The notes beneath the pieces were generated by a model that saw only the letters and a list, made by a program, of their open reading frames with translations, had not been told where the DNA came from and made no database searches. Shown here piece by piece: positions 1,174-28,191 of a DNA stretch of 64,000 bases. Numbering within the stretch: position 1 is the first letter of the stretch; each line of letters opens with the position of its first letter. The position numbers and the translations under genes are program-made. Origin of the DNA: a virus (taxonomy: Duplodnaviria; Caudoviricetes); the IMG/VR virus record IMGVR_UViG_3300036766_002286. The stretch is one strand, 5' to 3'.

Positions 1174-1740
1174 ATGAGCAAAGGGCTGTTAACTAAAAAA
1201 CAAGTTATTGCGCTGCTTGCAGATAACAAAAGCCTCGCCAATAAAAATCTAACAAAAATGGATTTATCCGGCCTTGACTTGTCAAAAGTTAACTTTCATG
1301 GAGCTATTTTGCAAGAAGCAAACTTATCTAATTGTAATTTAACTAAAGCAAATTTTTGGGGTGCAAATTTAGCCGACGCCAATCTCAGAGGTTCAGACCT
1401 CACCAAAGCAACTCTACAAGAGGCAAATTTACGTTACACTAATTTAGTTGGCGTAGTCGCAACTTCAGCAAAATTTTATAAAGCATTCTTATTGTGCGTT
1501 GATGCCAGTGGTGCCGACTTTACTGATGCGAACTTCATTGATGCGGATTTACAGTTCGCTGATTTTACTAAAGCTAATCTAAAAAACGCTGTTCTAAGAT
1601 GTGCTAAATTAACAGAAGTCACTTTTGAAGGAGCTAACTTACACAACACAGATTTTACCGATACAAATCTTGAGGAAGCTGATTTATTTGGCGCTAATCT
1701 TAAAGGTGCAATCGCCCCTGATGGGAGTATTCACCCATGA
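1174..1740 (+). CDS. Pentapeptide repeat protein (PRP1)
   Basis: A(N/D)LxX repeats; C-cap GAIAPDGSIHP; AGGAG before ATG 1174. Confidence 0.93.
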   Translation: MSKGLLTKKQVIALLADNKSLANKNLTKMDLSGLDLSKVNFHGAILQEANLSNCNLTKANFWGANLADANLRGSDLTKATLQEANLRYTNLVGVVATSAKFYKAFLLCVDASGADFTDANFIDADLQFADFTKANLKNAVLRCAKLTEVTFEGANLHNTDFTDTNLEEADLFGANLKGAIAPDGSIHP

Positions 1741-2150
1741 GCGAAATCACTCGTGTGGCTTTCTTAGAGATGGTTGCTTCTGGAATAAATACGGGCGACG
1801 TCAACGCAACAGGTCTAGACCTCTCGCATACAAATCTTATGGGCGCCAATCTTAGCCATGCAGACCTGTCCGGCGCCAACTTTTATGGTGCGAATCTTAG
1901 TTACACCAATCTTAGTTATGCAGTTTTTTTCAAAGCTAATTTTACGAAAGCTAATCTATCGTCCGCAGTTCTCATAGGCACAAATTTCTACAAGGCAGTC
2001 TTGATTGAAGCCGATCTCACAGACGTACGTGCAGACTATTCAACATTTTTCAAGGCCGCAAATTTAACCGGAGCACGTTTGTCTATTAGGGAATCAGTTT
2101 CCTCACAATTTTCCAAGACCATTATGCCAGACGGGTCTGTTCATCAATGA
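1737..2150 (+). CDS. Pentapeptide repeat protein (PRP2)
   Basis: Pentapeptide repeats; ITRxxFLE N-cap, IMPDGSVH C-cap; ATGA overlap. Confidence 0.92.
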   Translation: MSEITRVAFLEMVASGINTGDVNATGLDLSHTNLMGANLSHADLSGANFYGANLSYTNLSYAVFFKANFTKANLSSAVLIGTNFYKAVLIEADLTDVRADYSTFFKAANLTGARLSIRESVSSQFSKTIMPDGSVHQ

Positions 2151-2596
2151 GTAAAATCACTCGTGAGAGTTTTCTAGAAATAGTTAAAAACGATCTGCAC
2201 GGCACCAAGCACCGGCCGATGTCTATCAACTGTACTGGCCTAGATCTCACTCATACAGATCTCAGAGGTATTTGGCTATCTACATTAAATTTAGAAGGAT
2301 GTAATCTATTTGCAGCAGATCTCAGAGGTGCAAACTTTAGCTACTCGAATCTTACCAAAGCTAACCTTACCAAAGCTAATTTGTCACTCGCGACTCTCTT
2401 AGGCACAAATTTCTACAAGGCAGTCTTGATTGAAGCCGATCTCACAGTTATAAGAACCGATTATAGAACAAATTTTAAAGAAGCAAACCTAACCGGAGCT
2501 AATATTACTCGTATCAATTTTACCGATGCTCGCCTTATTAGCGCTAGTTTTTTGCATACCATTATGCCGGACGGCACTCTATGGAGACAACCATGA
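2147..2596 (+). CDS. Pentapeptide repeat protein (PRP3)
   Basis: Pentapeptide repeats; MSKITRESFLE cap; IMPDGTLWRQP end. Confidence 0.92.
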   Translation: MSKITRESFLEIVKNDLHGTKHRPMSINCTGLDLTHTDLRGIWLSTLNLEGCNLFAADLRGANFSYSNLTKANLTKANLSLATLLGTNFYKAVLIEADLTVIRTDYRTNFKEANLTGANITRINFTDARLISASFLHTIMPDGTLWRQP

Positions 2597-3018
2597 GTAA
2601 GATTACCCGGGAGAGCTTCTTAGAAAGGAGCAAAAAACGCTCAGCCCTACTCCCTGTTAACTGTACGGGTCTAGACCTATCATATGCAGACCTTAAGTGT
2701 GCGCATTTAGCTGGCTTAGATTTATCGGGTGCCAATCTCAATGGAGCCAACCTTAGTTATACAAACCTTAGCAATACATATCTTAAAAAAGCTAACCTTA
2801 CCAAGGCAAATTTGTCTTCAGCAACCATGTATGGTACAAATCTCTATAAAGCAATTTTAATTAACGCTACTCTTACTAACGTAATGGTCGATCATACAAC
2901 CATTTTTGAGGAAACTAATCTGCAGGGTGCTATTTTATCCCTTGATTTTCCTAGATTTTGGTTTGCAAATTTTACGAAAGTAATTATGCCAGACGGCACT
3001 CTATGGAGACAACCATGA
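2593..3018 (+). CDS. Pentapeptide repeat protein (PRP4)
   Basis: Same caps as PRP3; ATGA overlap sets start at 2593. Confidence 0.92.
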   Translation: MSKITRESFLERSKKRSALLPVNCTGLDLSYADLKCAHLAGLDLSGANLNGANLSYTNLSNTYLKKANLTKANLSSATMYGTNLYKAILINATLTNVMVDHTTIFEETNLQGAILSLDFPRFWFANFTKVIMPDGTLWRQP

Positions 3019-3455
3019 AAAAACTTACAAGTGAAAGTTTTCTAGAAATGGTTGCCGAAGGCGAGGTAATGCATAATATTAACGCTGAAGGCTTAGATCT
3101 TTCACATGCGAATCTACAAAGCGCAGATCTGTATCTCGTAAATCTAACTGGCGCTAATCTTTATGAAGCCAACCTTAGTTCTGCAGATCTAAGACGGGCA
3201 AATCTCACAAAAGCTAATCTCACAAAAACTAATCTCACTTCAGCAATTCTCTATAGCACAAATCTCTATAAAGCAGTTTTAATTGGCGCAGACCTCTCTT
3301 GTGTACTAACTGACCAGGGAACAATTTTTGAGCAAGCAAATTTTCTCCGCGCTCTGTTACCGGCTTCGGTGTATACAGTAACCTATGGGCGTTTACTAAT
3401 ACCAGACTTCACAAACGCTATTATGCCAGACGGCGTAACATATCAGCGTTGGTAA
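3015..3455 (+). CDS. Pentapeptide repeat protein (PRP5)
   Basis: Repeats; MKKLTSESFLE cap; ATGA overlap. Confidence 0.92.
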   Translation: MKKLTSESFLEMVAEGEVMHNINAEGLDLSHANLQSADLYLVNLTGANLYEANLSSADLRRANLTKANLTKTNLTSAILYSTNLYKAVLIGADLSCVLTDQGTIFEQANFLRALLPASVYTVTYGRLLIPDFTNAIMPDGVTYQRW

Positions 3456-3470
3456 CACAAGACCACTATT

Positions 3471-4154
3471 ATGAAAACTCTTTCGAAAGAACAAATAGTG
3501 CATAATGCAGCTAACGGTATAAGCATGTTGGGTATTGACGTCAAAGGTATTGACCTATCTGGTTGTGACCTAACTAAAGCTAAATTGACACATGCTAATT
3601 TTACCGGCGCAAATTTAGCCGGCGCAAGTTTATCGGGAGCCAATCTCTCGAACTCTATTTTAGATCATAGCGATATGTCAGACACCAACATAACTAGAGC
3701 TAACTTTCTTTATGCCAGTTTGCAAGAAGTTAATTTAAAAAGAACTAATGCTATAAGTAGCGGCGAGTATTTTACCAATATGTATAAAGCCAAACTTACT
3801 AAAGCCAACCCAACAGACGCTCAACTGCAAGGTGCCTGTTTGCTGGGGGTTATGGCCAACCTTACAAATTTTTCGAATGCTAATCTTACTAATACATATA
3901 TGCAGGAGATCGACTTATATTATGCCAATCTGACAAGGAGCATTCTAGCTAATGCTGATTTGCGTGGCGCAATTTTACATAGGGCGATTCTCCAAGCCAC
4001 CGTCATGTGTTACGCTAATTTGAGAGATGCGCAGCTTTACGTTAATTATCCAAAAACGCCCGCAGCTTTGTTTCAACCATACCGCTATGAGCCGCTGCTC
4101 GTAAACGTAAGTCTTACCGGCGCAATCATGCCCAATGGAAGTATTCATGACTAA
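3471..4154 (+). CDS. Pentapeptide repeat protein (PRP6)
   Basis: Repeats; loop insertion NAISSGEYFT; GAIMPNGSIHD cap. Confidence 0.92.
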   Translation: MKTLSKEQIVHNAANGISMLGIDVKGIDLSGCDLTKAKLTHANFTGANLAGASLSGANLSNSILDHSDMSDTNITRANFLYASLQEVNLKRTNAISSGEYFTNMYKAKLTKANPTDAQLQGACLLGVMANLTNFSNANLTNTYMQEIDLYYANLTRSILANADLRGAILHRAILQATVMCYANLRDAQLYVNYPKTPAALFQPYRYEPLLVNVSLTGAIMPNGSIHD

Positions 4155-4806
4155 GTTTATATCACAGCAAATTTCTGTGTCGCGCGCTCAAGTCCTAGAA
4201 ATTATAGCAAATAAGGGTACTTTAGCAGATACTGTTATTGATAGATTGGACCTGCAGGGTATAGATTTTAATGGAGTCAGTTTATCTAGGTCCAAGCTGA
4301 TATCCACTAACCTACCACACGCTAACTTATCTCACTGTGATTTAACCCAGGCAACTTTTCAACATAGTACGATTCATCATGCCAATCTGTCTCATAGTTT
4401 TCTGGCAGGAGCATATATGTATGAAATAAGTGGTAATAATGCCAACTTTTTTGAGGCGAATATGGTGAATATAGACTTGGCTGGAGCTGAGTTAAGTTTT
4501 GCAAATCTAACCGGGGTAGTTGCTGCGAGCGACGGTCATACGCGTGAAGCGATGTTTTATTATGCGGATCTCTCGAATGCTGATCTATCTCGAGCAGATT
4601 TTAGAGGTACAGATTTTATGGGCGTGAATTTTTCTAATGCAAATTTGACAAACACAGATCTAGAAAACGCTAATCTACAAGATATCCGCTGTTCTCGCGC
4701 TAATTTAAGTGGAGCGAATTTAACAAACGCTAAAGTGAAAATCCCCCAGCTAAAAACCGCCAACCTAACCAGAACTACCATGCCAGATGGGACGATACAT
4801 GAATAG
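4147..4806 (+). CDS. Pentapeptide repeat protein (PRP7)
   Basis: Repeats; TTMPDGTIHE cap. Confidence 0.92.
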   Translation: MTKFISQQISVSRAQVLEIIANKGTLADTVIDRLDLQGIDFNGVSLSRSKLISTNLPHANLSHCDLTQATFQHSTIHHANLSHSFLAGAYMYEISGNNANFFEANMVNIDLAGAELSFANLTGVVAASDGHTREAMFYYADLSNADLSRADFRGTDFMGVNFSNANLTNTDLENANLQDIRCSRANLSGANLTNAKVKIPQLKTANLTRTTMPDGTIHE

Positions 4807-4832
4807 CTATAATAGATACTTAAAGGCATTAA

Positions 4833-5690
4833 ATGAATAAAAAAGATATTGAATACATCGACAGCCAGGGTTCGCCGGCTGTTTTACGATATGGCGAGTC
4901 GTGGCACGGCACACCACTATCTAATGTAGATTTGTCTTATGCAGATATGTCACACACTGATTTATCCAATTTAGATTTTCATGGCACAAATTTTACAAAC
5001 GTAAATCTATCTTTTACAAAGCTGGAAAACTGTGATTTAAGCCAAACAAAACTTGATGGTGCTTGTTTTAATTATGCTGATCTCAGCTCCGCTAATTTAA
5101 CTTTGGCTTCAAGTGCCTTAGAATCTCCTATACAAGCCCAGGGTGCTCGTTTCATCTGTGCAAATTTATCTGGTTGCCAGCTGCCCGCGTCCTATATGCA
5201 CAAAGCCCGCCTATCTAGAGCAAATTTGACGAACACAGACCTGTCATACGCGGATCTCACTTCAGTATTTATGCTAGGCACAGCCCTACAAAAGGCAAAT
5301 CTCACTGCAGCTAACCTTCGTGAAGCTGTGCTGGGACGCAGTAATTTCACGCAAGCTAATCTAACAGGTGCAAATTTAACAGGCACTGAGCTTTCTGACA
5401 CAAACTTTACTGGGGCAATCATGCATAGAGTAAACTTAAGCGCCGCATATTTCTGTAGAACAATTATGCAAGGCACAGACCTGCAGGGCTCCAATATATC
5501 GAAAACACACCTTTTTAACACAGATATGACTAAAGCGAACCTTAGAGGTGTAGATTTCACCCAATGTATTTTTACAGGTAGTATGCAATACGCCAATCTT
5601 TATGGAGCCATTTTTGACCCCGACCACATATTCGAAGGCGACTCTTACTTCCGAGCGACTTTACCTGATGGTACTTTATATATACCATAA
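4833..5690 (+). CDS. Pentapeptide repeat protein (PRP8)
   Basis: Repeats; IEYIDSQG...GESW N-cap; DHIFEGDSYFRATLPDGTLY C-cap. Confidence 0.92.
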   Translation: MNKKDIEYIDSQGSPAVLRYGESWHGTPLSNVDLSYADMSHTDLSNLDFHGTNFTNVNLSFTKLENCDLSQTKLDGACFNYADLSSANLTLASSALESPIQAQGARFICANLSGCQLPASYMHKARLSRANLTNTDLSYADLTSVFMLGTALQKANLTAANLREAVLGRSNFTQANLTGANLTGTELSDTNFTGAIMHRVNLSAAYFCRTIMQGTDLQGSNISKTHLFNTDMTKANLRGVDFTQCIFTGSMQYANLYGAIFDPDHIFEGDSYFRATLPDGTLYIP

Positions 5691-5771
5691 ACCCATATTC
5701 TAATAGTATCTTCACTCTTGCTACTATACGTGCGCCCTAATAGTATATTATGTATAATATTTGGAGGCATT

Positions 5772-6380
5772 GTGCACACAAGCAAAGAACAGTTAACTAG
5801 AGAGCAAGTTCTCGAAAAAGTTTCAAACCACGACAGCTTCGCTCACACAGATCTGTCTGGAATGGATCTGTCTAGAATGAATTTGTCAGGGTTAAATTTT
5901 AATCACGCCGGTTTGTATGCAGCAAACCTGACCGGGGCTGATTTCACACAAGCAAGTCTGCTCGGCGCCACCCTAAGTGCGTCCCACATGCAGGGTGCTA
6001 GGTTCACACATGCAGACTTAACTTCCGCCTATTTAATAGCAGCGATAGCCCAGGGCACTGATTTCAGTTTTGCTAATTTACAAGACACCTATTTAATTAC
6101 CACCACTTTTGATAAAGCAAATTTTTATAAAGCCGACATGTCTAGAGCTAGAGTGCGCGGAGCGACTTTTCGTGGAGCGAATCTTGAAAATGCTAATTTA
6201 ACAAATACAGATCTCATCGAAGTTATATCTAATGCTAAATTTCACGCACGCCTTAATCAAGTTATACCGGACATGCTTATATCTTATACTGATTTAGCTT
6301 TTACTGACCTAAGTTTTGCAGACTTTACCAAAGCGAACCTAACGAACACAATAGCCCCAGACGGGTCTGTTCACCTATGA
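5772..6380 (+). CDS. Pentapeptide repeat protein (PRP9)
   Basis: Repeats; GGAGG before GTG 5772; LTREQVLEKV cap. Confidence 0.9.
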   Translation: MHTSKEQLTREQVLEKVSNHDSFAHTDLSGMDLSRMNLSGLNFNHAGLYAANLTGADFTQASLLGATLSASHMQGARFTHADLTSAYLIAAIAQGTDFSFANLQDTYLITTTFDKANFYKADMSRARVRGATFRGANLENANLTNTDLIEVISNAKFHARLNQVIPDMLISYTDLAFTDLSFADFTKANLTNTIAPDGSVHL

Positions 6381-7072
6381 GTACTTATAAAAATCTCACA
6401 AGGCAAAATATAATAGATAATGTTGCTAATAATGTAGATATGAAGTTTTGGCATATTCGGGGCATTGATTTGTCTTATGCTGATTTGACTAAAGCTCGTT
6501 TTTTTGCTGTTTCATTCGAGAATGTTAATCTTAAAGGGGCGAGCTTGTCCGGAGCTGACTTGCGAGGTGCTACATTAAACGATATTAATTTGTCCTACGC
6601 AAACTTAACCAGAGCAGATCTGTTCGGTGCTTCACTTAAACAAGCCAACCTCCAAGGTATTAACGCTATAAGTCATGGAAAGTATTTTACCGACATGCGC
6701 AACACCAAGCTTCAGGGGGCAAACTTTCATGGCGCACACTTGCAAGGCGTACAACTAATCCTAGCTAAAGCAGAGGGTGCTAATTTCTCATTCGCTAACT
6801 TGACTTCTGCAAATATGACCAGTATTAATCTGACGTCGGCAGATTTAACTAACACGAATATGACTAAAGTTACTCTTGTTCAAGCAACTGCGATAGATGC
6901 TATTTTAAAAAATACTATTATGACAGACGCCAATCTCACAGAATTAAGAGTTAACGGCAACTACCCTCAAACATTTAAAACAACGACAGACCCAGAAGCC
7001 TATGAATTACTACTATCTGACACCATTCTCACCAATGCCATTATGCCCAATGGTGTCATATATGCAAGTTAG
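6377..7072 (+). CDS. Pentapeptide repeat protein (PRP10), paralog of PRP6
   Basis: Repeats; NAISHGKYFT loop shared with PRP6. Confidence 0.92.
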   Translation: MSTYKNLTRQNIIDNVANNVDMKFWHIRGIDLSYADLTKARFFAVSFENVNLKGASLSGADLRGATLNDINLSYANLTRADLFGASLKQANLQGINAISHGKYFTDMRNTKLQGANFHGAHLQGVQLILAKAEGANFSFANLTSANMTSINLTSADLTNTNMTKVTLVQATAIDAILKNTIMTDANLTELRVNGNYPQTFKTTTDPEAYELLLSDTILTNAIMPNGVIYAS

Positions 7073-7143
7073 CTATAATATACATGTCAAGCACCACAAT
7101 CCTAAATTCGCCACAATAGTACTATTAAGTTAAGGAGAACCCT

Positions 7144-7959
7144 ATGAGAAAAAATATTAATTTCATTGACGGCTGGGGGAAACCAGCAACCCTTGTTTGG
7201 GGTGGGGACTGGAGTCACGTTCGCGGCAACTCAGCTGATTTTTCTTATGCCGACCTGTCTGGTGCGGATCTAACACCTCTCGGCGACTTGTGTGGCGCTA
7301 ATTTCCGCGGAGCAAACCTATCTAATACGACCCGCACTCATACTATAGATATTTTCTCTCTCATAGCCTACGATGCTGATTTCACTCAAGCCAATTTATC
7401 GAAAGCGTCATATCCTACGAGTTTTCCAGGCTTTCCCGGTGCGTATATGGTGCGATCTAAATTTAATGGAGCAAACCTTACCGAAATAAATTTAAGTAAC
7501 GCTGACCTTACTAGTGCTGATCTCAGTGCTGCAGACTTTACTAAAGCTAATCTCACATCAACTGTTTTAGTAGGAACAGTTTGCGGCTCAACCAATTTTT
7601 CTCAAGCAAATCTTACCAATGCTGATCTTCATGGTGCAGACTTATCTTGTGCAAATTTCACAGGCGCAATTATGATTGGTGCCAATCTCGGTCGTGTAGA
7701 TACCTCCACTGACTTTACTGACGCAGATCTCTCATATGCAGATTTCTCTCACGCTTTTCTAGATGAAGCAAATTTCACTAAAGCAAATTTATTTAAAGCA
7801 AATTTTTCTCATGCTAGGAAACTTAACAAAGAGGAGGACTGGTCAGGAGCTAGCTTTCGTGGGGCTAACCTAACCGAAGCCATTTTCGACCCCGACCACA
7901 AATTTGAAGGTGACGCTTATATTGGTGCCACCCTGCCAGACGGTACTTTGTACCGGTAA
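7144..7959 (+). CDS. Pentapeptide repeat protein (PRP11)
   Basis: Repeats; INFIDGWG..W N-cap; FEGDAYIGATLPDGTLYR C-cap. Confidence 0.92.
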   Translation: MRKNINFIDGWGKPATLVWGGDWSHVRGNSADFSYADLSGADLTPLGDLCGANFRGANLSNTTRTHTIDIFSLIAYDADFTQANLSKASYPTSFPGFPGAYMVRSKFNGANLTEINLSNADLTSADLSAADFTKANLTSTVLVGTVCGSTNFSQANLTNADLHGADLSCANFTGAIMIGANLGRVDTSTDFTDADLSYADFSHAFLDEANFTKANLFKANFSHARKLNKEEDWSGASFRGANLTEAIFDPDHKFEGDAYIGATLPDGTLYR

Positions 7960-7981
7960 GTTATAAAATAACACCCGCACC

Positions 7982-8010
7982 TTGCTATTAGTAATACAGC
8001 ATCTACAGTA
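7982..8010 (+). promoter_or_regulatory. Class A promoter
   Basis: TTGCTA-16bp-TACAGTA followed by AAGGAG. Confidence 0.65.
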
Positions 8011-8032
8011 TAAATAAACCAAGGAGACCTCT

Positions 8033-8626
8033 GTGAGTAAACCTAATATAGAATATACTGATCGTAATGATAACGAACAACGTCTACAATGGGACAAGTC
8101 GTGGGCAGACCTCGATTTATGTGGCGCTAATTTTGCAGGCGCCGATCTCAAGGGTGCTAACTTCGCACATTGTGACTTACGTGGCGCTATTTTATACAAG
8201 GCTAATCTAGAGGGCGCTGATTTTCGTAGTGCTGCTATGGTCTCAGCTGACTTAAGTGAAGCTGTCTTAGCTGGCGCAGATCTCTCACATGCAGATCTAT
8301 CATACGCCAAGTTACCTGGAGCAAATCTAGAATCGGCTGATCTGCGTGACGCTAACCTTAATGAAGCTGACCTAAGTGAAGCTAATTTAGTTAATGTCAT
8401 GTTTCACGGCGCTGAATTGAAAAGAGCTAATCTAGCTAATACTAATTTAGAAGGTGCTAATTTTTATCAAGCAACTCTGTATAAGGCTAATCTAGAGGGC
8501 GCTGATTTGCTCGACACTGACTTTAGCGGAGCAACCTTATTTGGTGTGTTATTGTCTGTTCGGCAACGAAATGTATGTCTTGGACGGGACGATGGTATTT
8601 TCGGTGGAGAGACAGCGCATGAATAA
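8033..8626 (+). CDS. Pentapeptide repeat protein (PRP12)
   Basis: Repeats; KPNIEYTDRN..LQWDKSW N-cap. Confidence 0.93.
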   Translation: MSKPNIEYTDRNDNEQRLQWDKSWADLDLCGANFAGADLKGANFAHCDLRGAILYKANLEGADFRSAAMVSADLSEAVLAGADLSHADLSYAKLPGANLESADLRDANLNEADLSEANLVNVMFHGAELKRANLANTNLEGANFYQATLYKANLEGADLLDTDFSGATLFGVLLSVRQRNVCLGRDDGIFGGETAHE

Positions 8627-9047
8627 GCCTAATATAAAATATATTGATCGCAATGGTAACCCTCAGGAATTATCATGGGGCGAATCATGGGTAGGCATAG
8701 ATTTGGCTGGCGCTAACCTACAGGCCACTGATCTGCGGCAAGCTGAGCTGCCAAAGGCCAACCTGCAAGACGCAAATTTAAGTGGAGCAGATTTGAGACG
8801 TGCTGATTTATGTGATGCTAGTTTGCAAGGCGCTAACCTAGAGCGTGCTAATTTAGGTGGTGCTTACTTTTGGAGAGCTAATTTAAGTCACACCAATCTG
8901 CAACACACTAATTTACTAGGCGTTAATTTTGAAGATGCCAATTTAAGCCAAGCCGACTTTACAAATGCCGATCTGCAAGGTGTGACGCTTACTTTGCATC
9001 AACAAAAAGAGTGCATAGGATATAGTACAACTTCGAGAGACGCATGA
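8619..9047 (+). CDS. Pentapeptide repeat protein (PRP13)
   Basis: Repeats; KPNIKYIDRNGNPQELSWGESW cap; QQKECIGY end. Confidence 0.93.
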   Translation: MNKPNIKYIDRNGNPQELSWGESWVGIDLAGANLQATDLRQAELPKANLQDANLSGADLRRADLCDASLQGANLERANLGGAYFWRANLSHTNLQHTNLLGVNFEDANLSQADFTNADLQGVTLTLHQQKECIGYSTTSRDA

Positions 9048-9138
9048 TGCATAAGCCTAATGTAAAATATATTGATAGTCTAGGTAACCCGCAGGAACTT
9101 GTCTGGGGCGACTCATGGGTAGGCATAGATTTGGCGGG
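8779..9138 (+). repeat. 360-bp exact direct repeat, copy 1 (copy 2 at 12123-12482)
   Basis: Base-by-base comparison; constant offset of 3344. Confidence 0.93.
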
Positions 9139-9484
9139 CGCTAATTTAACTAGCGCCAATCTGGTTGGTGCTAATTTAACTGGTGCTAATTTAACTAACG
9201 CCAATTTGACAGATGCAGCGCTGATTAGTGCAATCCTTCATGATGCAGATTTAAGTGACGCAAATCTACGCAAGGCTTGTCTAGTGCGTGCTACACTGCG
9301 TAATGCTAATCTGACGCGAGCAGATTTACGGGGCGCCACTTTAAATAGCACTAACTTATATGGTGCTGATTTAAGTGCCACTAATCTCACCAATGCTATT
9401 TTAACAGGCATAACCTTGTCAGAACAACAAAAAATCGCATGTATTGGTTATAATGAGTCAACTCCACAGCCAGCAGATATTTAA
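9044..9484 (+). CDS. Pentapeptide repeat protein (PRP14)
   Basis: Repeats; QQKIACIGY end. Confidence 0.93.
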   Translation: MMHKPNVKYIDSLGNPQELVWGDSWVGIDLAGANLTSANLVGANLTGANLTNANLTDAALISAILHDADLSDANLRKACLVRATLRNANLTRADLRGATLNSTNLYGADLSATNLTNAILTGITLSEQQKIACIGYNESTPQPADI

Positions 9485-9612
9485 GTGTATAAGTCTACTA
9501 TGAGATGCTATTGTCCACTTATTCATATTAACTACCAAACACCTACCACATAAAGTCTCTTACATTTCGCTATATCCCATGAATAATACCAGAACAACAA
9601 AGAAGAATAACC

Positions 9613-9720
9613 ATATTTAATAAATACGGCCCACAAACCAAATATATTAAGAATTTATTTTATGAAGTCCATAAATTAAACAAAGAGCAAATAACTGCTT
9701 TGCAAAGTTCTGTTGCTTAG
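9613..9720 (+). pseudogene. Truncated paralog of the 13691-14113 gene
   Basis: IFNKYGPQTKYIKNLFYEVHKLNKEQITALQSSVA* vs MFDKYGPQTKYIKRLLDEVYSLNQDQITDLQKSVT; ATG changed to ATA. Confidence 0.8.
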
Positions 9721-9807
9721 GTCGAAACTATCTAAATACGCGTGATCCCCATCCTCTGACTTCATACCTGGTCTGCATTCAATATAATGTCTATAAGGTC
9801 TTATTTT

Positions 9808-10752
9808 TTATTTTGATTTTATATCCCAACCATCAGCTATAATACAGCCATTTAGATTTGCGCCTATAAAGTTAGCATCTCCTAGCCCAGCACCTCTTAA
9901 ATCAGCAAAACTCAAATCAGCATTACCAAAATCGACGTGGTTTAAGTAAGCATCATTAAGCTTGGCATAACTTAAATCAGCACCACTCAGATCACTGTCA
10001 CTTAAGTCAGCACTAGTCAAATTGGCATACCTTAAATTAGCGCAACTTAAATTAGACTGATACAACAGCACGCGGCTTAGATCTGTTTTGCTGAGATCCG
10101 CTCCACGCATATTGGTTTCACTTAGCTTAACGCCGCTCAAGTTAACTCCACCTAAATTGGCTTCAACTAAGTTGGCTCTACTTAAATCTACCTTGTCTAG
10201 CTTGGTGCCTTTACTTAAATCCACCCCACCTAAATAGGCTCCACTCAAGTCGACGCCAACCAAAATAGTTTGACTCAAGTCAGCGCCTTTAAAACTAACC
10301 TTACTTAAATTAGCACCGGTGAAATCGGCGGCATATAAATTGGCTCTAAATAAATTAGCGGCGAGTAAAGTAGCTCCATTAAGCTTGGCGTTAGTTAAAT
10401 CAGCATCGTGTAAAGTAGCTCCATTTAAAACAGCTTTACTTAAATTAGCACTGCTCAGATTAGTATTATTTAGATTAGTATTATTTAGATACGCACTATG
10501 TAAGTTAACCATATACATGCGAGCGTCCTCTAAGTTGGCCCCATTTATACTAGCACTAGATAAATCAGCGTTACGCAAATCAGTTTCAGATAGATCTGCT
10601 CCATCTAAACTAGCTCTGCTTAAGTCCGCACCATTTAAATTAGCACCACTTAAATTGGCTCTACGTAAATCTTTTACTTGTCCATCTAATACAAGTATTG
10701 CGTCTTTTCCATCACAATCAATGTGAGGTACTTCACGATGTTTAGTTGTCAT
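9808..10752 (-). CDS. Pentapeptide repeat protein (PRP15, longest)
   Basis: Long repeat run; HIDCDGKDAILVL N-cap; GCIIADGW end. Confidence 0.93.
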   Translation of the reverse strand: MTTKHREVPHIDCDGKDAILVLDGQVKDLRRANLSGANLNGADLSRASLDGADLSETDLRNADLSSASINGANLEDARMYMVNLHSAYLNNTNLNNTNLSSANLSKAVLNGATLHDADLTNAKLNGATLLAANLFRANLYAADFTGANLSKVSFKGADLSQTILVGVDLSGAYLGGVDLSKGTKLDKVDLSRANLVEANLGGVNLSGVKLSETNMRGADLSKTDLSRVLLYQSNLSCANLRYANLTSADLSDSDLSGADLSYAKLNDAYLNHVDFGNADLSFADLRGAGLGDANFIGANLNGCIIADGWDIKSK

Positions 10753-11140
10753 TGGTTTTCTCCTGTGCTTGCATAATCCATCCTTCTGTAAAAATACAGC
10801 CATCCCAATTTACCCCAGTTAGATCTGCGCCGTGCAAATTTGCGCCAGTCAAGTTAGCATTATTAAGGTCAGCACCATTCAAATTAGCATTAGTTAAATT
10901 GGCAAAACTCAGATCGGCGCTGCTTAAATTAGCGTCGTTTAATTTGACACCATACAGATAGGCATCTCTCAAGTCAGCTCCGCTTAAATTAGAGCCCCGC
11001 AGATCTTTAAATTCGCCACCCAATGTAAATATTGCATTTTTACCCTTACGATCAATATAGGGTATTTTATTAGATCTTGGCGTTATTACGAACTCTTTTT
11101 GATCGACCAGCTTTGATTCTTCCTGAGATTTATCACTCAT
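10742..11140 (-). CDS. Pentapeptide repeat protein (PRP16)
   Basis: Repeats; YIDRKGKNAIFTL cap; GCIFTEGW end; AGGAG before ATG 11140. Confidence 0.92.
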   Translation of the reverse strand: MSDKSQEESKLVDQKEFVITPRSNKIPYIDRKGKNAIFTLGGEFKDLRGSNLSGADLRDAYLYGVKLNDANLSSADLSFANLTNANLNGADLNNANLTGANLHGADLTGVNWDGCIFTEGWIMQAQEKTNDN

Positions 11141-11167
11141 AAGTACTCCTTGCATCCAGTTGTATCT

Positions 11168-11196
11168 TACTATAGGCGCTTAAGTCGTCTACACAA
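11168..11196 (-). promoter_or_regulatory. Class A promoter
   Basis: TTGTGT-16bp(..GCGCC)-TATAGTA on the minus strand. Confidence 0.65.
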
Positions 11197-11203
11197 ATAA
11201 TAT

Positions 11204-11290
11204 ATGTTCAAAGCTGATTTTTCAGGCACTGTACTCCGAGCCGCTTATAATGAGGCTGCCTTACCAGATGGCACTTTGTATCAACAATAA
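11204..11290 (+). pseudogene. PRP 3'-end remnant
   Basis: MFKADFSGTVLRAAYNEAALPDGTLYQQ* matches the LPDGTLY C-cap. Confidence 0.7.
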
Positions 11291-11378
11291 GTCTCTTACT
11301 GTCATGATGTATCTCTAAAATTTCTTATCTTGATAGCAATTAGCCCCAATAGTATCATTAAACTAAGGAGCTAGAATA

Positions 11379-11660
11379 ATGAACCAAACACCCGTTCCGT
11401 CAGTTTCTACGATAGTTTCTACGATCAGAGCTATGATTGTTCATTATGAAATGGACTTTCTGGTGCGCAGGCAGAGTGGGAAAATGAGTCAAAAACAAAT
11501 AGACGACGACATCGAAATTATCGAAGATGCCAATAAGGCGATGGAAACGTTACTAAAGGACGATCTACGCTTGCGTGAGTACATCACCGAACTAGAAGAA
11601 GAAAACCGCCAACTTCGTTCCAGCCAGCCAGGACAGTTCTATACGCCGAGTGGAGAATAA
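11379..11660 (+). CDS. Small coiled-coil protein, divergent member of the AIR..ELQALL..RIAELE family
   Basis: STIRAMI...METLL..LREYITELEEENRQL; AGGAG SD. Confidence 0.7.
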   Translation: MNQTPVPSVSTIVSTIRAMIVHYEMDFLVRRQSGKMSQKQIDDDIEIIEDANKAMETLLKDDLRLREYITELEEENRQLRSSQPGQFYTPSGE

Positions 11661-11662
11661 CG

Positions 11663-12391
11663 ATGACCAAACCAAATGTTAAATACAGAGATCGTAATGG
11701 TAACGAGCAACATCTACAATGGGACAAGTCGTGGGCAGACCTCGATTTATGTGGCGCTAATTTTGCAGGTTGCGATCTCATCGGTGCTAACTTCGCCGGC
11801 GCTGACTTACGTGGTGCTATTTTGTACAAGGCTAATCTGCGTGACGCTGATTTCCGTAGTGCTTCTATGATTTGTGCTGACCTAAGTGAAGCTATCTTAA
11901 CTGGCACTGATTTTAGCAATGCGGATTTATCACACGCAAAGCTGCGGGGAGCAAATCTAGAATCGGCTGTTCTAAGGGGCGCTAACCTTAATGAAGCTGA
12001 CCTACGTGAAGCTAATCTAATTAATGTCGCCTTTGCGGGCGCAGAATTGAAAAAAGCTAACTTAAGTAATACTAGTTTGGAAGGGGCTAATTTTTATGGG
12101 GCAACTCTGTATTACGCTAATCTAAGTGGAGCAGATTTGAGACGTGCTGATTTATGTGATGCTAGTTTGCAAGGCGCTAACCTAGAGCGTGCTAATTTAG
12201 GTGGTGCTTACTTTTGGAGAGCTAATTTAAGTCACACCAATCTGCAACACACTAATTTACTAGGCGTTAATTTTGAAGATGCCAATTTAAGCCAAGCCGA
12301 CTTTACAAATGCCGATCTGCAAGGTGTGACGCTTACTTTGCATCAACAAAAAGAGTGCATAGGATATAGTACAACTTCGAGAGACGCATGA
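11663..12391 (+). CDS. Pentapeptide repeat protein (PRP17), chimera of a PRP12-like N-part and the PRP13 C-part
   Basis: N-part closely similar to 8033-8626; C-part identical to PRP13. Confidence 0.93.
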   Translation: MTKPNVKYRDRNGNEQHLQWDKSWADLDLCGANFAGCDLIGANFAGADLRGAILYKANLRDADFRSASMICADLSEAILTGTDFSNADLSHAKLRGANLESAVLRGANLNEADLREANLINVAFAGAELKKANLSNTSLEGANFYGATLYYANLSGADLRRADLCDASLQGANLERANLGGAYFWRANLSHTNLQHTNLLGVNFEDANLSQADFTNADLQGVTLTLHQQKECIGYSTTSRDA

Positions 12392-12482
12392 TGCATAAGC
12401 CTAATGTAAAATATATTGATAGTCTAGGTAACCCGCAGGAACTTGTCTGGGGCGACTCATGGGTAGGCATAGATTTGGCGGG
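12123..12482 (+). repeat. 360-bp exact direct repeat, copy 2
   Basis: Identical to 8779-9138. Confidence 0.93.
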
Positions 12483-12855
12483 AGCCGATTTAAGCGGTGT
12501 AGAGTTAGCCGGCGCTAACTTTTCTAATGCTAATTTGAGACGCGCTAATATGCGACGTACTAACTTAGGCGCAGCAAATCTAAGCGCTGCTTGTTTGGTT
12601 GATTCCGACCTAATTAAAGCTAATTTATGCAGCGCAAATCTGAAAGACGCTAATTTGCGTAGCGCTGATTTAAATCACGCGGATTTAAGTAACACTGACT
12701 TAAGTAATGCTAACTTACGTTTCACTAATTTACGACGTGCTGATTTGCAGGGTGCTGATTTATCAGGCGCCGAACTACGAGGAGTTGAGCTATCTAGCCG
12801 CCAGAAAAAGGCGTGCATTGGTCTTAGTGAAACTGTACAGTCTTCTTATGAGTAG
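12388..12855 (+). CDS. Pentapeptide repeat protein (PRP18)
   Basis: N-cap identical to PRP14, different repeat body. Confidence 0.93.
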   Translation: MMHKPNVKYIDSLGNPQELVWGDSWVGIDLAGADLSGVELAGANFSNANLRRANMRRTNLGAANLSAACLVDSDLIKANLCSANLKDANLRSADLNHADLSNTDLSNANLRFTNLRRADLQGADLSGAELRGVELSSRQKKACIGLSETVQSSYE

Positions 12856-13612
12856 ATCGAATCTTAAATATATTGACCAAGACGGCCACCCACAAGAATT
12901 AAAGTGGGGAGAAAGATGGTCAGAATTTGCCCTGGCTGAGGCTAATTTATCTAATTCCGACTTGTCTGGCGCAGATCTCACTAACGTATGTTTAGATAAA
13001 TCAAATTTAACTAACGCCAATTTATCAGGCATAACCGCCACTTCAGAAGTATGTATGCAAGAAGCAAATCTTGAGGGAGCCAATCTTTCTAAGGCATTTC
13101 TTCCTGGAGCTTATTTGACACGCTCAAATTTCTCTTATGCTAATCTTACTTCCATAGAGCTGTCTAATGCAGATCTTACAGGCGTTAAGTTACTAAGAAC
13201 AGACCTAACCGGAGCAAATCTTTCAGGTGCTATCATGGTAGGCTCCCAGGCTTTGCAAGCTATTTTTACTAAAGCCGACCTGATAGAGACAGACCTGTAC
13301 GGATCCGAACTGGGCAATTCCAAATTTATAGGTGCTAATTTATCTCGCGCCAATTTATCTAGAGCAGAACTGTATGATGCAGATTTTTCTGGCGCAGATC
13401 TAACAGATGCTAGGTTTGTAAATACTAGTGTACATGGAACAAATTTCACTAAAGCAAATCTTTTAGGCGTGGATTTTTCCACCACCCAACATCTAGAACT
13501 ATGCTGTATGCAGTACGCTAATCTCACTGGCGCCCGCTTTCCGGAAGACCACGTATTTGAAGGCAACGCTTATATTGGTGCTACTTTACCAGACGGTACT
13601 TTGTACCGGTAA
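12848..13612 (+). CDS. Pentapeptide repeat protein (PRP19)
   Basis: Repeats; LKYIDQDGHPQELKWGERW cap; FEGNAYIGATLPDGTLYR end. Confidence 0.93.
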   Translation: MSRSNLKYIDQDGHPQELKWGERWSEFALAEANLSNSDLSGADLTNVCLDKSNLTNANLSGITATSEVCMQEANLEGANLSKAFLPGAYLTRSNFSYANLTSIELSNADLTGVKLLRTDLTGANLSGAIMVGSQALQAIFTKADLIETDLYGSELGNSKFIGANLSRANLSRAELYDADFSGADLTDARFVNTSVHGTNFTKANLLGVDFSTTQHLELCCMQYANLTGARFPEDHVFEGNAYIGATLPDGTLYR

Positions 13613-13637
13613 GCTATAAAAGTCCCAATAAAGTCTC

Positions 13638-13666
13638 TTGCTTTTAGTCACATTCCGCGTACAGTA
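13638..13666 (+). promoter_or_regulatory. Class A promoter
   Basis: TTGCTT-16bp-TACAGTA followed by AAGGAG. Confidence 0.65.
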
Positions 13667-13690
13667 CTTAAATAATCAAGGAGAACTACC

Positions 13691-14113
13691 ATGTTTGATA
13701 AATACGGTCCACAAACTAAATATATTAAGAGGTTACTAGATGAGGTCTATTCGTTAAACCAGGACCAAATAACTGATTTGCAAAAATCTGTTACTCACTC
13801 TACAAACCGCGCAGCCGAGGGTATTGCCTGGCGCGCTGCTATAAGCGTTTCTCACCACCCTGCCGGAGATGCCATCGGAGAAACTGTAAGTGCTTCATCT
13901 AACAACGCCTGGGACGCCGCCGCGCAAGTCACCGAATCCGCTTGTAAGAATATTGATCAAGATGCCACTTCCGCAATTCGTGGGGTTTCATCAGCACTAG
14001 CTGTCCGCGATCGTATTGGTGGTAAATTCACTCAAGAACATTATGATGTCCTTACTAAGCCTTGGCGTAAAATTGTCGGCTCAATTCATCCAGACGATAA
14101 AAATCTAATATAA
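13691..14113 (+). CDS. Hypothetical protein resembling actinophage Ala/Trp-rich (AWDAA) proteins
   Basis: YGPQT N-terminus, AWRAA/AWDAA core, ALAVRDRIG..FTQEHYDVLTKPWR..IHPDD end. Confidence 0.65.
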   Translation: MFDKYGPQTKYIKRLLDEVYSLNQDQITDLQKSVTHSTNRAAEGIAWRAAISVSHHPAGDAIGETVSASSNNAWDAAAQVTESACKNIDQDATSAIRGVSSALAVRDRIGGKFTQEHYDVLTKPWRKIVGSIHPDDKNLI

Positions 14114-14147
14114 AAATATGCTCGCGCAAGCCACACGTAAGTAACTG

Positions 14148-16589
14148 TTACAATCCGCGTAATTCCCCAAAAGCAGCTATACTAACCTCCAGTGGTGATC
14201 CACTACCATCACGCTTTGAGCGATCTTTAGGATAACCAACAACCGATCCAGCAGCACTAATTCCTATTGGTAATTTTATTCCCACTCCAGCAGCAACTAT
14301 ACCTGCTTCAGCTTTTCGCAAAGTCATACATCGCACTCCACCAGTTCCTCTACCTTTAGTTGGATAATCAGCCACACTACTTACTTTAACAGAGCCCATA
14401 TCTGATATTGTAACTACTACTGCCAAACTTCCCGGCTCATAGCATGTAAATAAGATTACTTCATTACCATCAGCAACTCTAATCCCAGCCATTCCGCCGG
14501 CAGTCATGCCCTTGCTTGCAACCAAGTTTAAGTTAAATCTAAGTAACTGTGCATCTGTAGTTACAAATATACCATCAAATGACTCTGCGCACTTGCTTGA
14601 TAGGGCCACCACCCCGACAACTTTATCTTTAGGTTTTAAAGTTATAATAGGCTTAGGGTCTAATCTAAGTGGGAATTCACTAGTAAGAATTTTTTTAATA
14701 AATCCTTGTGCAGTTCCCATAACGATAGCTTGTCCGTTACTTGCATCAAATAACCCTACAGCGCTTTCACCGGGCTCAAAAGAAAAAACTTCTTTGCATA
14801 ATACACCCCTAGAAGATCCAGCTGCAATTGGTAGATCTATTACAGAGCACCGCATAAGGCGGCCATGCGAGGTAACTACTCCAATTATCGCTCTGTTAGT
14901 TGTAATGGCCTGTGATAGTACAACATCATGTTTTGAGGCTTTACCACTGAAAGGCTCGATCCCATAGCGCCCTATAAGGCCGGTTGTAGTTAAGACTACT
15001 ATACACGGGTCATCTGGTATTTCTAAGGATACCGATGCAGAGCTCACTATAGCAAGGTCTTTAACTAGACGTGATTTTCGCGGCGTTCCATGCAACTTAC
15101 TTACTTCTCCCAGCTCGGTAGATACCAGCTCACGCATGACTTTATCAGAAGATAATAACTTATTTAGCTCAGCTATAGTCACCTTGAGGTCTTTTAGCTC
15201 ACCTTTAAGGCTTGCTACTTCTAAACTAGTCAGTCTACGTAACGGCATTTCTAAAATAACATCTGTTTGTATATCTGATAGCGCAAACGCCTTCGAAAGC
15301 TTTTCTCTAGCTACAGCCGTACTGCTACTAGATTTAATAATCTTTATGACTTTGTCTATAGATACTAGAGCTAGCACTAACCCTTCTACTATATGTTCGC
15401 GTGCTTTGGTCTTAGCTAAACGGAATACTGTACGCCTACGAACGACTTCTAAACGGTGTTTTAGATATAGGCTGCACAATTCTAACAGTCCTAGAGTTTT
15501 AGGTTCCCCATCCACTAAAGCTACGTTATTCACTGAAAAAGTTTCCTGCAGGGGAGTTAGTCGGTACAATTCATCTAGTACTGCTTGAGGATTAAAACCA
15601 TTTTTGCATTCTATAACCAAATGTAATCCGGGAGTTTTTCTATCTGTAAAGTCATTAATATTAGATACTCCGGTCAATTTTTTTGCATTTACTAAAGCTT
15701 TTACTCGTTCCATTATTTTTACAGGTCCCACATTATACGGAAGCTCTGTTATAACAATTGCTTTTTTCCGACCTGTTGTATCTTCAATTGTAGCTGATGC
15801 TCGCAGCATAAAAGATCCACGGCCAGTAACATAGGCCTCTTTTATACCTTCACGACCTATTATAATCCCACCCGTAGGCAAATCTGGCCCTAGAATAAAT
15901 TTCATTAATTCTGACAGACTCATTGTCGGATTCAATAGCAGTGCTTGCAATCCTTTTATAACCTCAACAAGATTGTGCGGAGGCATGTTTGTAGCCATAC
16001 CTACAGCAATTCCAGTTGACCCATTAACTAGCAAATTAGGAAATCCAGCTGGCATAACTTCAGGCTCGACTCCCGTTCCATCATAAGTCTCTGTCATGTT
16101 TACAGTATCTTCATCTATACCTTCAACTAAACTTAAAGCTGACGCAGCCATCCTACATGCCGTGTATCTACTCGCAGAAGCTGGATCATCTAGAGAACCA
16201 AATCCTCCATGTGGGTCTATTAAAGGTAATCGCATAGACCAAGCTTGTGCCAGACGTACAAGTGCTTCGTAAATGGCCATGTCGCCATGTGGGTGATATT
16301 TTCCCATTGTATCACCCACCACTTTAGCACACTTGTTGTAAGGTGCTTTTGGTAGCATTCCTTGCGCATATAGTGACCATAGAATGCGTCGATGCACCGG
16401 TTTTAGTCCATCGCGCACATCAGGCAATGCTCGTGCTACTATGACACTCATAGCGTATTCTAGAAATGATCCACTAAGCTCTTTAGATACATCTATATCA
16501 GTAGTACCACTTAAGACAAGTGCACTACTAGATTTGCTAGCAGCTTTAGTCGCCCGCGGTTTAGCTTTTTTAGTTGCCACAATCCACAT
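14148..16589 (-). CDS. parC: Type IIA topoisomerase A subunit, actinobacterial topoisomerase IV (ParC)-like
   Basis: RALPDVRDGLKPVHRR, YHPHGD, catalytic RYT, LLVNGSTGIAVGMATNMPPHNL; CTD AGGMAGI and KGRGTGGVRC; no GyrA-box seen. Confidence 0.85.
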   Translation of the reverse strand: MWIVATKKAKPRATKAASKSSSALVLSGTTDIDVSKELSGSFLEYAMSVIVARALPDVRDGLKPVHRRILWSLYAQGMLPKAPYNKCAKVVGDTMGKYHPHGDMAIYEALVRLAQAWSMRLPLIDPHGGFGSLDDPASASRYTACRMAASALSLVEGIDEDTVNMTETYDGTGVEPEVMPAGFPNLLVNGSTGIAVGMATNMPPHNLVEVIKGLQALLLNPTMSLSELMKFILGPDLPTGGIIIGREGIKEAYVTGRGSFMLRASATIEDTTGRKKAIVITELPYNVGPVKIMERVKALVNAKKLTGVSNINDFTDRKTPGLHLVIECKNGFNPQAVLDELYRLTPLQETFSVNNVALVDGEPKTLGLLELCSLYLKHRLEVVRRRTVFRLAKTKAREHIVEGLVLALVSIDKVIKIIKSSSSTAVAREKLSKAFALSDIQTDVILEMPLRRLTSLEVASLKGELKDLKVTIAELNKLLSSDKVMRELVSTELGEVSKLHGTPRKSRLVKDLAIVSSASVSLEIPDDPCIVVLTTTGLIGRYGIEPFSGKASKHDVVLSQAITTNRAIIGVVTSHGRLMRCSVIDLPIAAGSSRGVLCKEVFSFEPGESAVGLFDASNGQAIVMGTAQGFIKKILTSEFPLRLDPKPIITLKPKDKVVGVVALSSKCAESFDGIFVTTDAQLLRFNLNLVASKGMTAGGMAGIRVADGNEVILFTCYEPGSLAVVVTISDMGSVKVSSVADYPTKGRGTGGVRCMTLRKAEAGIVAAGVGIKLPIGISAAGSVVGYPKDRSKRDGSGSPLEVSIAAFGELRGL

Positions 16590-16644
16590 CCGGCATCATA
16601 GATTTTATTGAGTCTTGTACAACATAATATTTCCGCATCTATAA

Positions 16645-16673
16645 TACTGTCCGCTATTTGCTAAATAGCGCAA
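16645..16673 (-). promoter_or_regulatory. Class A-type promoter of the topoisomerase gene
   Basis: TTGCGC-16bp-GACAGTA. Confidence 0.55.
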
Positions 16674-16770
16674 GCACCCTTTATTTTAGCCCATATTTGA
16701 TGCTATATAAATATATTATTTATATTAAAGATATCAAAAGTTATTTAGTATTTTATCAAAATATTTCAAG

Positions 16771-21251: not shown

Positions 21252-21298
21252 AAGATTTTATACAGGATGCTAGTTTTGAACAAAGACAACTCAACTGT

Positions 21299-28189: not shown

Positions 28190-28191
28190 CT

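Follow-up and report, generated by a model that had tools for sequence, protein, structure and literature searches.

An array of pentapeptide-repeat protein genes beside a parC-like gene on a 616-kb replicon

Genes and features of the locus

The window, the whole 64-kb stretch of DNA that was analysed, forms part of a replicon represented by a 616-kb contig. A six-frame scan of the window recovered all 27 intact, stand-alone pentapeptide-repeat protein (PRP) genes that an earlier sequence-only reading had placed there, including the 19 within 1174-13612, which cover 91.6% of that span; one further PRP gene (P0139) is present on the same contig. Two extra six-frame matches proved to be antisense shadow ORFs and were rejected. 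About a quarter of the window consists of intact PRP genes under selection, making it an extreme case. The main features are as follows.

1084-1112, + strand: example of the promoter-like motif that heads PRP units and small accessory ORFs
1174-1740, 1737-2150, 2147-2596, 2593-3018 and 3015-3455, + strand: PRP1-5, helical head, P[DN]G tail
3471-4154 and 4147-4806, + strand: PRP6-7, helical head, P[DN]G tail
4833-5690, + strand: PRP8, beta-hairpin head, P[DN]G tail
5772-6380 and 6377-7072, + strand: PRP9-10, helical head, P[DN]G tail
7144-7959, + strand: PRP11, beta-hairpin head, P[DN]G tail
8033-8626, 8619-9047 and 9044-9484, + strand: PRP12-14, hairpin head, QQxxCIG tail; the PRP genes of the first block copy
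9550-9717, + strand: dead partial copy (5' part) of the 13691 ORF, with an early stop and no start codon; closes the first block copy
9808-10752, − strand: PRP15, 314 aa, about 55 repeats
10742-11140, − strand: PRP16; the PRP15-16 unit has its own promoter motif at 11196
11231-11290, + strand: suggestive relic of a lost PRP gene, of which the 3' end remains (PDG tail plus stop codon)
11379-11660, + strand: 93-aa non-PRP ORF within the array, no family
11663-12391, + strand: PRP17, a chimera, PRP12-like then PRP13-like
12099-12493, + strand: 395-bp near-identical tract, 97.5% identical to 8756-9149
12388-12855, + strand: PRP18
12848-13612, + strand: PRP19, hairpin head, PDG tail
13691-14113, + strand: 140-aa ORF (phrog_8332), own promoter motif at 13638
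14148-16589, − strand: ParC-type topoisomerase IIA A subunit (PF00521 and PF03989)
30492-30920, + strand: PRP20, hairpin head, QQxxCIG tail
31873-32544, − strand: PRP21, helical head, QxxxCIG tail
32597-32971, − strand: PRP22; promoter motif of the PRP21-22 unit at 33152
48519-49016, − strand: PRP23, hairpin head, most acidic rod
53025-53747, − strand: PRP24, promoter motif at 53797
55414-55713, − strand: PRP25, 99 aa, basic, without a tail cap
59738-60388, + strand: PRP26, promoter motif at 59681
60628-61044, + strand: PRP27

The description of the 19 genes as one array holds as a grouping at 1174-13612 but not as a single operon, the order along the DNA being 14 PRP genes on the + strand, two on the − strand, one non-PRP ORF and three more PRP genes on the + strand. 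Translational coupling is borne out by overlaps at 11 of the 18 array junctions (seven of 4 nt, three of 8 nt and one of 11 nt). PRP units and small accessory ORFs are preceded by a promoter-like motif, TTG-N(11-15)-GC[CG]-N(1-4)-A[CT]AGTA. The window has 14 strict matches to it, an 8-fold enrichment over shuffled sequence (1.7 ± 1.4, maximum 7); generic sigma-70 and terminator scans gave no excess over chance. The 13691 ORF belongs to a phage family of unknown function and lies in a duplicated block, outside the conserved context of parC; ESM Atlas returned no family for it.

With starts assigned from ribosome-binding sites, the PRPs are 99-314 aa long, close to the earlier estimate of about 100-315 aa. 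NCBIfam PRP models are matched by all 27, and the two proteins scanned against Pfam PF00805 gave E values of 2e-74 and 2e-51 (245 and 172 bits, cut-off 20). Each carries 15-55 repeats of the [ASTV][DN][LF]xx type and has no more than about 35 residues after the rod. The sequence-only reading had the proteins as signal-less, and a clear hydrophobic signal or transmembrane segment is absent: 19-residue hydropathy stays at or below 1.3 except in PRP1, where it reaches 1.62 with the peak inside the rod. A secreted or membrane role was rejected. An assembly artefact was likewise rejected because the paralogues are 35% identical and 12453-26589 is matched at 100% identity by an independent Logan contig; that contig ends at 12453, inside the 395-bp tract, as expected of a true repeat.

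Duplication, recombination and selection

The array records a segmental duplication of block 8033-9717 to 11663-14113. The dead copy at 9550-9717 retains 75% nucleotide identity to 13628-13795 (68% amino acid identity over 34 residues, E 2e-11), while the putative relic at 11231-11290 matches PRP19 by tblastn at 71% over 14 aa, at an E of 0.2-0.5 that makes it suggestive only. PRP17 shows about 82% nucleotide identity to PRP12 until about 12110, then becomes PRP13-like and is identical from 12143 to the stop. The 395-bp tract spans a gene junction and is a product of recent recombination or conversion. Two head and two tail modules occur in all four pairings, the fourth being the helical head and QxxxCIG tail of PRP21. 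The closest paralogues are array neighbours (PRP2-5 at 45-53%; PRP6 with PRP10 at 44%). Gene-specific loops occur in about seven rods, and loop positions are conserved between the old paralogues PRP6 and PRP10. The locus is a birth-and-death array, or gene accordion, of PRP genes, in which genes of 15-nt periodicity undergo tandem duplication and recombination within the rods, with changes in length, cap swaps and relics as the outcome.

In the cleanest PRP pair dN/dS is 0.35 overall, 0.13 at inward positions (95% CI 0.02-0.32), 0.22 in the cap, 0.56 at outward positions and 1.08 at i+1 (0.5-2.2); older pairs give 0.15-0.30. Between most paralogues synonymous substitution has come close to saturation, yet all 27 full-length genes are intact. 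Purifying selection acts on the beta-helix core and caps and holds them, surfaces are near-neutral and outward residues drift, and some genes acquire loops; drift alone could account for most of the variation on the surface. A large, diversified, recombining and selected PRP repertoire does exist here and is exceptional, which upholds that side of the earlier reading. The term "diversifying" stands for divergence and mosaicism but not for positive selection, a frequent trace of an arms race: none was detected in the single pair that was informative, with 26 codons in each class.

The parC neighbour

A parC-like gene lies 536 bp from the last PRP gene with one small gene, the 13691 ORF, between them, just as described from the sequence alone. 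Its product exceeds the cut-off of NF004044 and falls below those of the gyrA models, keeps the invariant catalytic R141-Y142, has a degenerate GyrA box and groups in a tree with actinobacterial ParC, apart from GyrA, with support 100. The window holds no topoisomerase B subunit. The gene is convergent (tail-to-tail) with the array and not co-transcribed with it, and 23 of the 64 non-PRP genes in the window are as near a PRP gene as parC is (about 36%, the proportion expected from local gene density).

The earlier reading had named an absence of conserved linkage in relatives as grounds for refutation, and that is the outcome. The comparison used nine related parC loci, with flanks of 1-10 kb and ParC identities of 52-62% and with the sister clade (L246 and L259) included; none of the nine has a PRP gene, as checked by HMM. 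A PRP-like ORF occurs at 2 of 238 type IIA A-subunit loci, in both cases a long multidomain protein. Pattern scans with ParC turned up no close relatives among metagenome, genome or viral contigs. Gene content at the parC 3' junction varies among the related loci, and since this site is also variable in relatives, the neighbourhood is probably incidental. parC looks like a backbone gene, a neighbour outside the PRP system, and the PRP zone would have grown into the tail-to-tail gap at its 3' end. With no conserved linkage, chance-level adjacency and proteins of HetL/Np275 type, the functional topoisomerase link put forward earlier is unsupported, and the parC neighbourhood should not be cited in favour of a new system of topoisomerase control.

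Fold, relatives and possible roles

[quoted passage not shown] The best structure matches are HetL, Np275-276 and the designed beta1 (Foldseek TM 0.69 for HetL; VIA Z 23-24, rmsd 2.4-2.6 over about 180 residues), and the best models are HetL/Alr5209. HetL (All3740, PDB 3DU1), Np275/Np276 (2J8K) and Alr5209 (6OMX) have in common with the present proteins the A(D/N)Lxx consensus, the Rfr beta-helix and a single-domain cytoplasmic form. The PRPs here differ from HetL in scoring below the cut-off of its equivalog NF047416 (113.7 bits for PRP19 against 260; best E of the 27, 1.5e-52), in their private hairpin head and in their tandem arrays. Moreover, the HetL equivalog binds HetR in heterocyst-forming cyanobacteria, whereas the flanking genes here are of actinobacterial type and, judged by them, the host is not a cyanobacterium; the likeness would be solely one of how the proteins work. 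An HMM search of 1.84 billion representatives found the hairpin head in proteins of this contig only, plus an unrelated beta-propeller repeat family; a word-based search with the head gave no match. A homologue search with PRP11 returned generic PRPs only (28-43%), as did phage and plasmid collections (under 60%).

Among other repeat proteins, the phage PRP-DUF5758 early proteins (PF00805 and PF19062) are also mobile-element rods whose length is altered by recombination in 15-nt units, but each is a single gene whose DNA repeats are nearly identical and whose product has a C-terminal domain, unlike the many old paralogues with diverged repeats and no additional domain found here. In three members, two scanned against Pfam and one looked up in precomputed annotation, there are pentapeptide families only and no DUF5758 domain. 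PipB/PipB2, SopA/NleL and IcmE/DotG carry extra N-terminal, HECT-like or membrane domains that the present PRPs lack, and their models gave repeat-only matches far below cut-offs. Ankyrin, MORN, FNIP and LRR expansions in giant viruses and intracellular bacteria combine tandem birth-and-death, variable surfaces and accessory regions; in the present case the fold differs, a secretion signal is absent and the replicon is of an uncultured, bacterial type. No account of a comparable PRP array or expansion came to light in the literature searched.

That the PRPs act as MfpA/Qnr-like T-segment mimics, modulating or protecting the replicon's ParC or host gyrase, is very unlikely. MfpA does share the Rfr fold with them (VIA Z about 21), the array lies close to parC and most PRPs are mildly acidic. 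The likeness to MfpA, Qnr, AlbG, McbG and EfsQnr extends to rod dimensions and, in one tail class, a short C-terminal helix. The group dimerises end to end through a C-terminal helix-strand module; predicted structures here show a 7-residue helix at the MfpA-equivalent place, then disorder, in the QQxxCIG class and none in the PDG class. Nine PRPs have a short helix at the site of the MfpA dimer helix. Some rods, as in Qnr, have projecting loops. However, PRP19 scores 67 bits on the Qnr model (cut-off 240) and 37 on MfpA (cut-off 360), and the best E values over the 27 are 1.2e-27 for Qnr and 7.9e-20 for MfpA, against 1e-52 for HetL; membership in either family was rejected on these curated NCBIfam cut-offs. 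On an MfpA tail profile the PRPs reach at most 13.7 bits against 40-63 in its own MfpA-like training set. MfpA and QnrB1 bind GyrB, and GyrA alone was not pulled down (PMC7980463, PMC7897471); the partner subunit is B, whereas the adjacent gene here encodes A. A Met occupies the Ser83-equivalent site of this ParC, and quinolone protection would therefore add little. To these points and the locus comparisons above can be added that the MfpA/Qnr group, which binds the ATPase domain of GyrB/ParE and rescues poisoned enzyme in an ATP-dependent way, is single-copy and conserved, whereas the PRPs here are multi-copy, surface-variable, of widely differing length and without the MfpA tail motif; one conserved target would not call for dozens of paralogues that are 35% identical and free to vary on their surfaces. 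Co-folding of ParC 30-510 with PRP19 scored 0.00 and was given no weight either way.

The view that the rods are Ocr/ArdA-like DNA-mimic decoys that titrate DNA-binding proteins of host defence, such as restriction enzymes, Cas effectors and sensors, is doubtful. It accords with their shape, the net negative charge of 21 of the 27, their cytoplasmic character, the accessory region of a mobile-like replicon and the promoter motif common to small ORFs. MfpA/Qnr proteins have a strongly negative surface, in Qnr as a stripe on faces 1-2 (PMC3089455), but net charge per coil has the same median, -0.8, here and in 85 unrelated PRPs (p 0.79), four PRPs of the window are neutral to basic (pI up to 9.2), outward positions are not conserved, PADLOC gave no match and no paper was found on PRPs as anti-defence mimics. 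None of the 27 has an acidic face, a comparison of low power in which the MfpA-like controls also had none; by sequence-level charge count the 12 controls were no more acidic than generic PRPs, and the charge and stripe test, which did not separate the two, thus says little against mimicry. Nothing tested points to DNA mimicry. A possible but unlikely alternative is a recombination-driven expansion of largely redundant genes, in which periodic DNA amplifies easily, the paralogues lack specific targets and selection demands only folding or a high total dose (bulk scaffold, solute or ion binding). The dN/dS values (close to 1 at i+1, strongly constrained on core and caps only), the relics and chimeras, and a tandem array of seven membrane-anchored PRPs in an Acidimicrobiia genome would fit it, but the 27 genes have stayed intact despite near-saturated synonymous sites, coupling and promoters are kept, loop positions are conserved in PRP6 and PRP10, and an AT-rich replicon would be expected to shed useless DNA.

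We consider it probable, if far from certain, that the locus is a lineage-specific birth-and-death array of HetL/Np275-type cytoplasmic PRPs, putative protein-binding rods, and that it sits in the accessory part of an Actinomycetota-linked replicon of 616 kb. HetL binds the surface of HetR in competition with another ligand (PMC7476756). By analogy, and these are the weakest steps of the proposal, the rods would be made from the replicon's own promoters alongside other small accessory ORFs and might serve as competitive binders or decoys of many host or rival-element proteins, each paralogue presenting a different surface and no single enzyme being targeted. It is tempting, though rather unlikely to be right, to go further and see a recombination-diversified library of small solenoid binders, with exchangeable caps, differing lengths and loops of their own, that jams many host regulators or defence proteins at the same time, a few perhaps touching the topoisomerase B subunit; if true, the giant extrachromosomal element would carry a natural "antibody repertoire" built of repeat proteins.

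PRPs are common and almost all are without a known partner, the two named cases being gyrase and HetR (PMC7476756), and even a few partners found here would reveal roles of stand-alone PRPs and also show how replicons of this unclassified 0.4-0.8 Mb class deal with their hosts. For this the array is a compact test set of small soluble proteins on a common scaffold that differ in caps, length and loops. The 64-kb window has 27 PRP genes; Nostoc PCC 7120 has 32 across its entire genome (PMC7476756).

The pentapeptide-repeat array

The expansion of pentapeptide-repeat proteins (PRPs) in the window is real and striking. A six-frame scan for pentapeptide runs recovered 27 genuine PRP reading frames (PRP1 to PRP27, in coordinate order), including the 19 within 1174-13612 that form the array, at the coordinates that the sequence-only reading had given. 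With start codons picked via ribosome-binding sites, the proteins are 99-314 aa long, and a convincing signal or membrane segment is absent from all 27, in agreement with their earlier description as signal-less, stand-alone proteins. The array genes occupy 91.6% of their span, and at 11 of the 18 junctions adjacent genes share 4, 8 or 11 nt, which bears out the claim of coupled genes. The array is laid out in three parts:

Part 1: 14 PRP genes, + strand
Part 2: 9808-11140, - strand, two PRP genes
Part 3: a 93-aa unrelated ORF, then three PRP genes, + strand

An independent Logan contig is identical (100%) to window 12453-26589. Directly ahead of the array lies a stand-alone response-regulator receiver gene (289-666, -).

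All 27 PRPs score best on the HetL (best E 1.5e-52) and Alr5209 (2.6e-46) models and far more weakly on Qnr (best E 1.2e-27) and MfpA (7.9e-20); PRP19, for example, reaches 67 bits on Qnr and 37 on MfpA, against cut-offs of 240 and 360 bits. The predicted structures of PRP19 (pLDDT 96) and PRP26 (pLDDT 83) each show an Rfr beta-helix preceded by a hairpin, and their closest structures are HetL, Np275-276 and designed beta1 solenoids, with MfpA and Qnr ranking behind. Whereas MfpA-like proteins (12/12) end in a C-terminal helix with an A..HG[LA] motif, the window PRPs score at most 14 bits against the MfpA-like tail profile, and nine of them, constituting one tail class, have a shorter helix at that position and so may dimerise.

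The PRPs sit on a 616,293-bp JGI contig, which carries elsewhere a further PRP with an identical head (N-terminal cap) type; the GC content of the source DNA is 41%, and the 64-kb window contains no tRNA genes. Strong PRP matches were found in 45 of 121 Acidimicrobiia genomes, most with 1-3 matched stretches, and named phages and plasmids carry one PRP or a few each; Nostoc PCC 7120 has 32 PRP genes genome-wide (PMC7476756). One Acidimicrobiia genome (66% GC) carries a chromosomal seven-gene tandem array, with two more such genes on another contig (loci L240 9542-14034, G060:C45, and L242). This array has no topoisomerase nearby and differs from that of the window in its caps and in its membrane anchors, its proteins having a common Arg-rich/hydrophobic N-terminus. 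Tandem PRP arrays therefore recur, but one of this scale is exceptional for a replicon of less than a megabase, and we found no published description of such an array in the literature.

Turnover within the array

The nearest paralogue of most PRPs is a neighbouring gene, and median local identity between paralogues is 37%. The block 8033-9717 recurs at 11663-14113, and PRP17 is a chimera created inside the rod, PRP12-like up to ~12110 and then identical with PRP13. The features concerned are as follows:

8039-8509 vs 11669-12139: duplicated-block segment, 82% identity
8756-9149 vs 12099-12493: duplicated-block segment, 97.5% identity
9550-9717: dead copy of the 13691 ORF, at the end of the first block
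11231-11290: possible relic of a PRP tail (C-terminal cap)

Each of the two heads (a short helix or a hairpin, Y.D..G) is found with each of the two tails (P[DN]G or QQxxCIG), and loops of 4-22 residues peculiar to single genes are present in about seven rods. Beyond this contig, 1.84 billion representatives yielded no match to the hairpin head.

The sole unsaturated long pair has an overall dN/dS of 0.35, with 0.13 at inward, 0.22 at cap and 0.56 at outward positions, and 1.08 (CI 0.5-2.2) at position i+1 of the repeat; older pairs give 0.15-0.30. The low values in core and caps, with i+1 near 1, argue that the proteins are maintained as folded rods with free surfaces. Of the 'diversifying' repertoire proposed earlier, chimera formation, block duplication and divergence hold, whereas positive selection was not demonstrated in these pairs.

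The motif TTG-N(11-15)-GC[CG]-N(1-4)-A[CT]AGTA occurs 14 times in the window versus 1.7 in shuffles. Copies of it, strict or loose, precede PRP1, 9, 12, 16, 22, 24 and 26, the 13691 ORF and numerous small accessory ORFs; parC, too, has a loose copy upstream. The motif looks like a putative general promoter type of the replicon.

The parC neighbourhood

The gene at 14148-16589 (-) encodes a type IIA topoisomerase A subunit, and family models and tree uphold its identification as ParC-like. Its relatives (52-62%) come from uncultured replicons, in a clade adjoining actinobacterial ParC. Two nearby genes enter the comparison:

13691-14113, +: 140-aa ORF of phage family phrog_8332, within the 536-bp gap between the last PRP and parC
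22890-23738, -: phage-type deoxynucleoside monophosphate kinase (phrog_139), kept at ~60% near parC in four relatives

The relatives' parC regions share further window genes at 44-62% (the dNMP-kinase-like 282-aa gene, MgtC and the 37133 ORF), which marks parC as an old backbone gene. In related replicons of 45-71% GC (L007, L008, L091, L239, L244, L245, L246, L259), parC is kept with pyk, uvrA, phoH, ruvAB, MgtC, RNase H, DnaJ-like or type IV pilus genes, in shuffled order. At its 3' end there, a gene for pyruvate kinase or MgtC converges on it, and several loci have variable small genes inserted, from which we infer a tolerant insertion site. At the quinolone site equivalent to Ser83 (HGDMAIYE), the ParC of the window carries Met, as do five relatives of another clade; most have Ser. 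The last 45 residues encoded by the 13691 ORF match hypothetical proteins from phages of Clavibacter and Skermania, which fits an actinobacterial host.

Possible roles of the rods and other window genes

That the array acts as a topoisomerase system, as the sequence-only reading proposed from its position, is not supported by the evidence, and we regard topoisomerase modulation as very unlikely. Array and parC converge tail-to-tail, 23 of the window's 64 non-PRP genes lie equally close (within 536 bp) to a PRP, and the duplicated block took in the 13691 ORF and left out parC. A lack of such linkage in relatives had been named beforehand as a point of refutation, and this was the outcome: Pfam found no PRP within 1-10 kb of parC at nine related loci, two from the sister clade, and a profile built from the window's own PRPs found none at the eight of them with DNA. 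PRP-like ORFs occur at 2 of 238 fetched type IIA A-subunit loci, both being long multidomain proteins. Moreover, MfpA targets the GyrB ATPase domain (PMC7980463) and QnrB1 pulls down GyrB, not GyrA alone (PMC7897471), but the 64-kb window has no topoisomerase B subunit.

DNA mimicry is unproven. Net charge ranges from +4 to -15 (pI 4.3-9.2), the charge per coil is the same as in 85 unrelated PRPs (p 0.79), and none of the rods showed an acidic face; as MfpA-like controls were not set apart either, the test is too weak to count against mimicry. That the PRPs are decoys of defence proteins seems improbable. A redundant or dose-driven expansion is somewhat easier to credit, if still doubtful. We slightly favour a spread of competitive binders. 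The array shows amplification, chimera formation, loss and purifying selection on core and caps; the two known partners of PRPs are each bound through a protein surface, HetL acting by competition for a site on HetR (PMC7476756). Cytoplasmic rods varied in length, caps and loops would, by this account, compete for surfaces of host or rival proteins.

Elsewhere, the window encodes 2-oxoglutarate dehydrogenase E1 (24697-27216, -), convergent piperideine-6-carboxylate dehydrogenase and lysine 6-aminotransferase (33226-36114), and peptidyl-tRNA hydrolase (39238-39810, +). A further set (18171-21251, +; 40014-41099, -; 41198-44860, -; 49204-52443, +; 16771-18081, -) consists of large secreted-looking proteins that combine Thr-rich linkers with fibronectin-III domains, RCC1-like repeats occurring in one of them, and of a trypsin-like protease; a C-terminal module is common to 21066-21253 and 41196-41386 (74% nt identity). 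At 45014-47842 (+), a 300-aa ORF precedes a P-loop ATPase of 621 aa that gives weak profile matches of the FtsK/terminase type, possibly a NurA-HerA-like pair, the pairing being a guess. A second expanded family comprises small coiled-coil ORFs (27491-29846, +; 53869-54150, +; 58116-58903, -; 61644-63479, +) with a recurrent pattern, PTxAI....I......EA..ELQALLD, and the promoter motif ahead of many.
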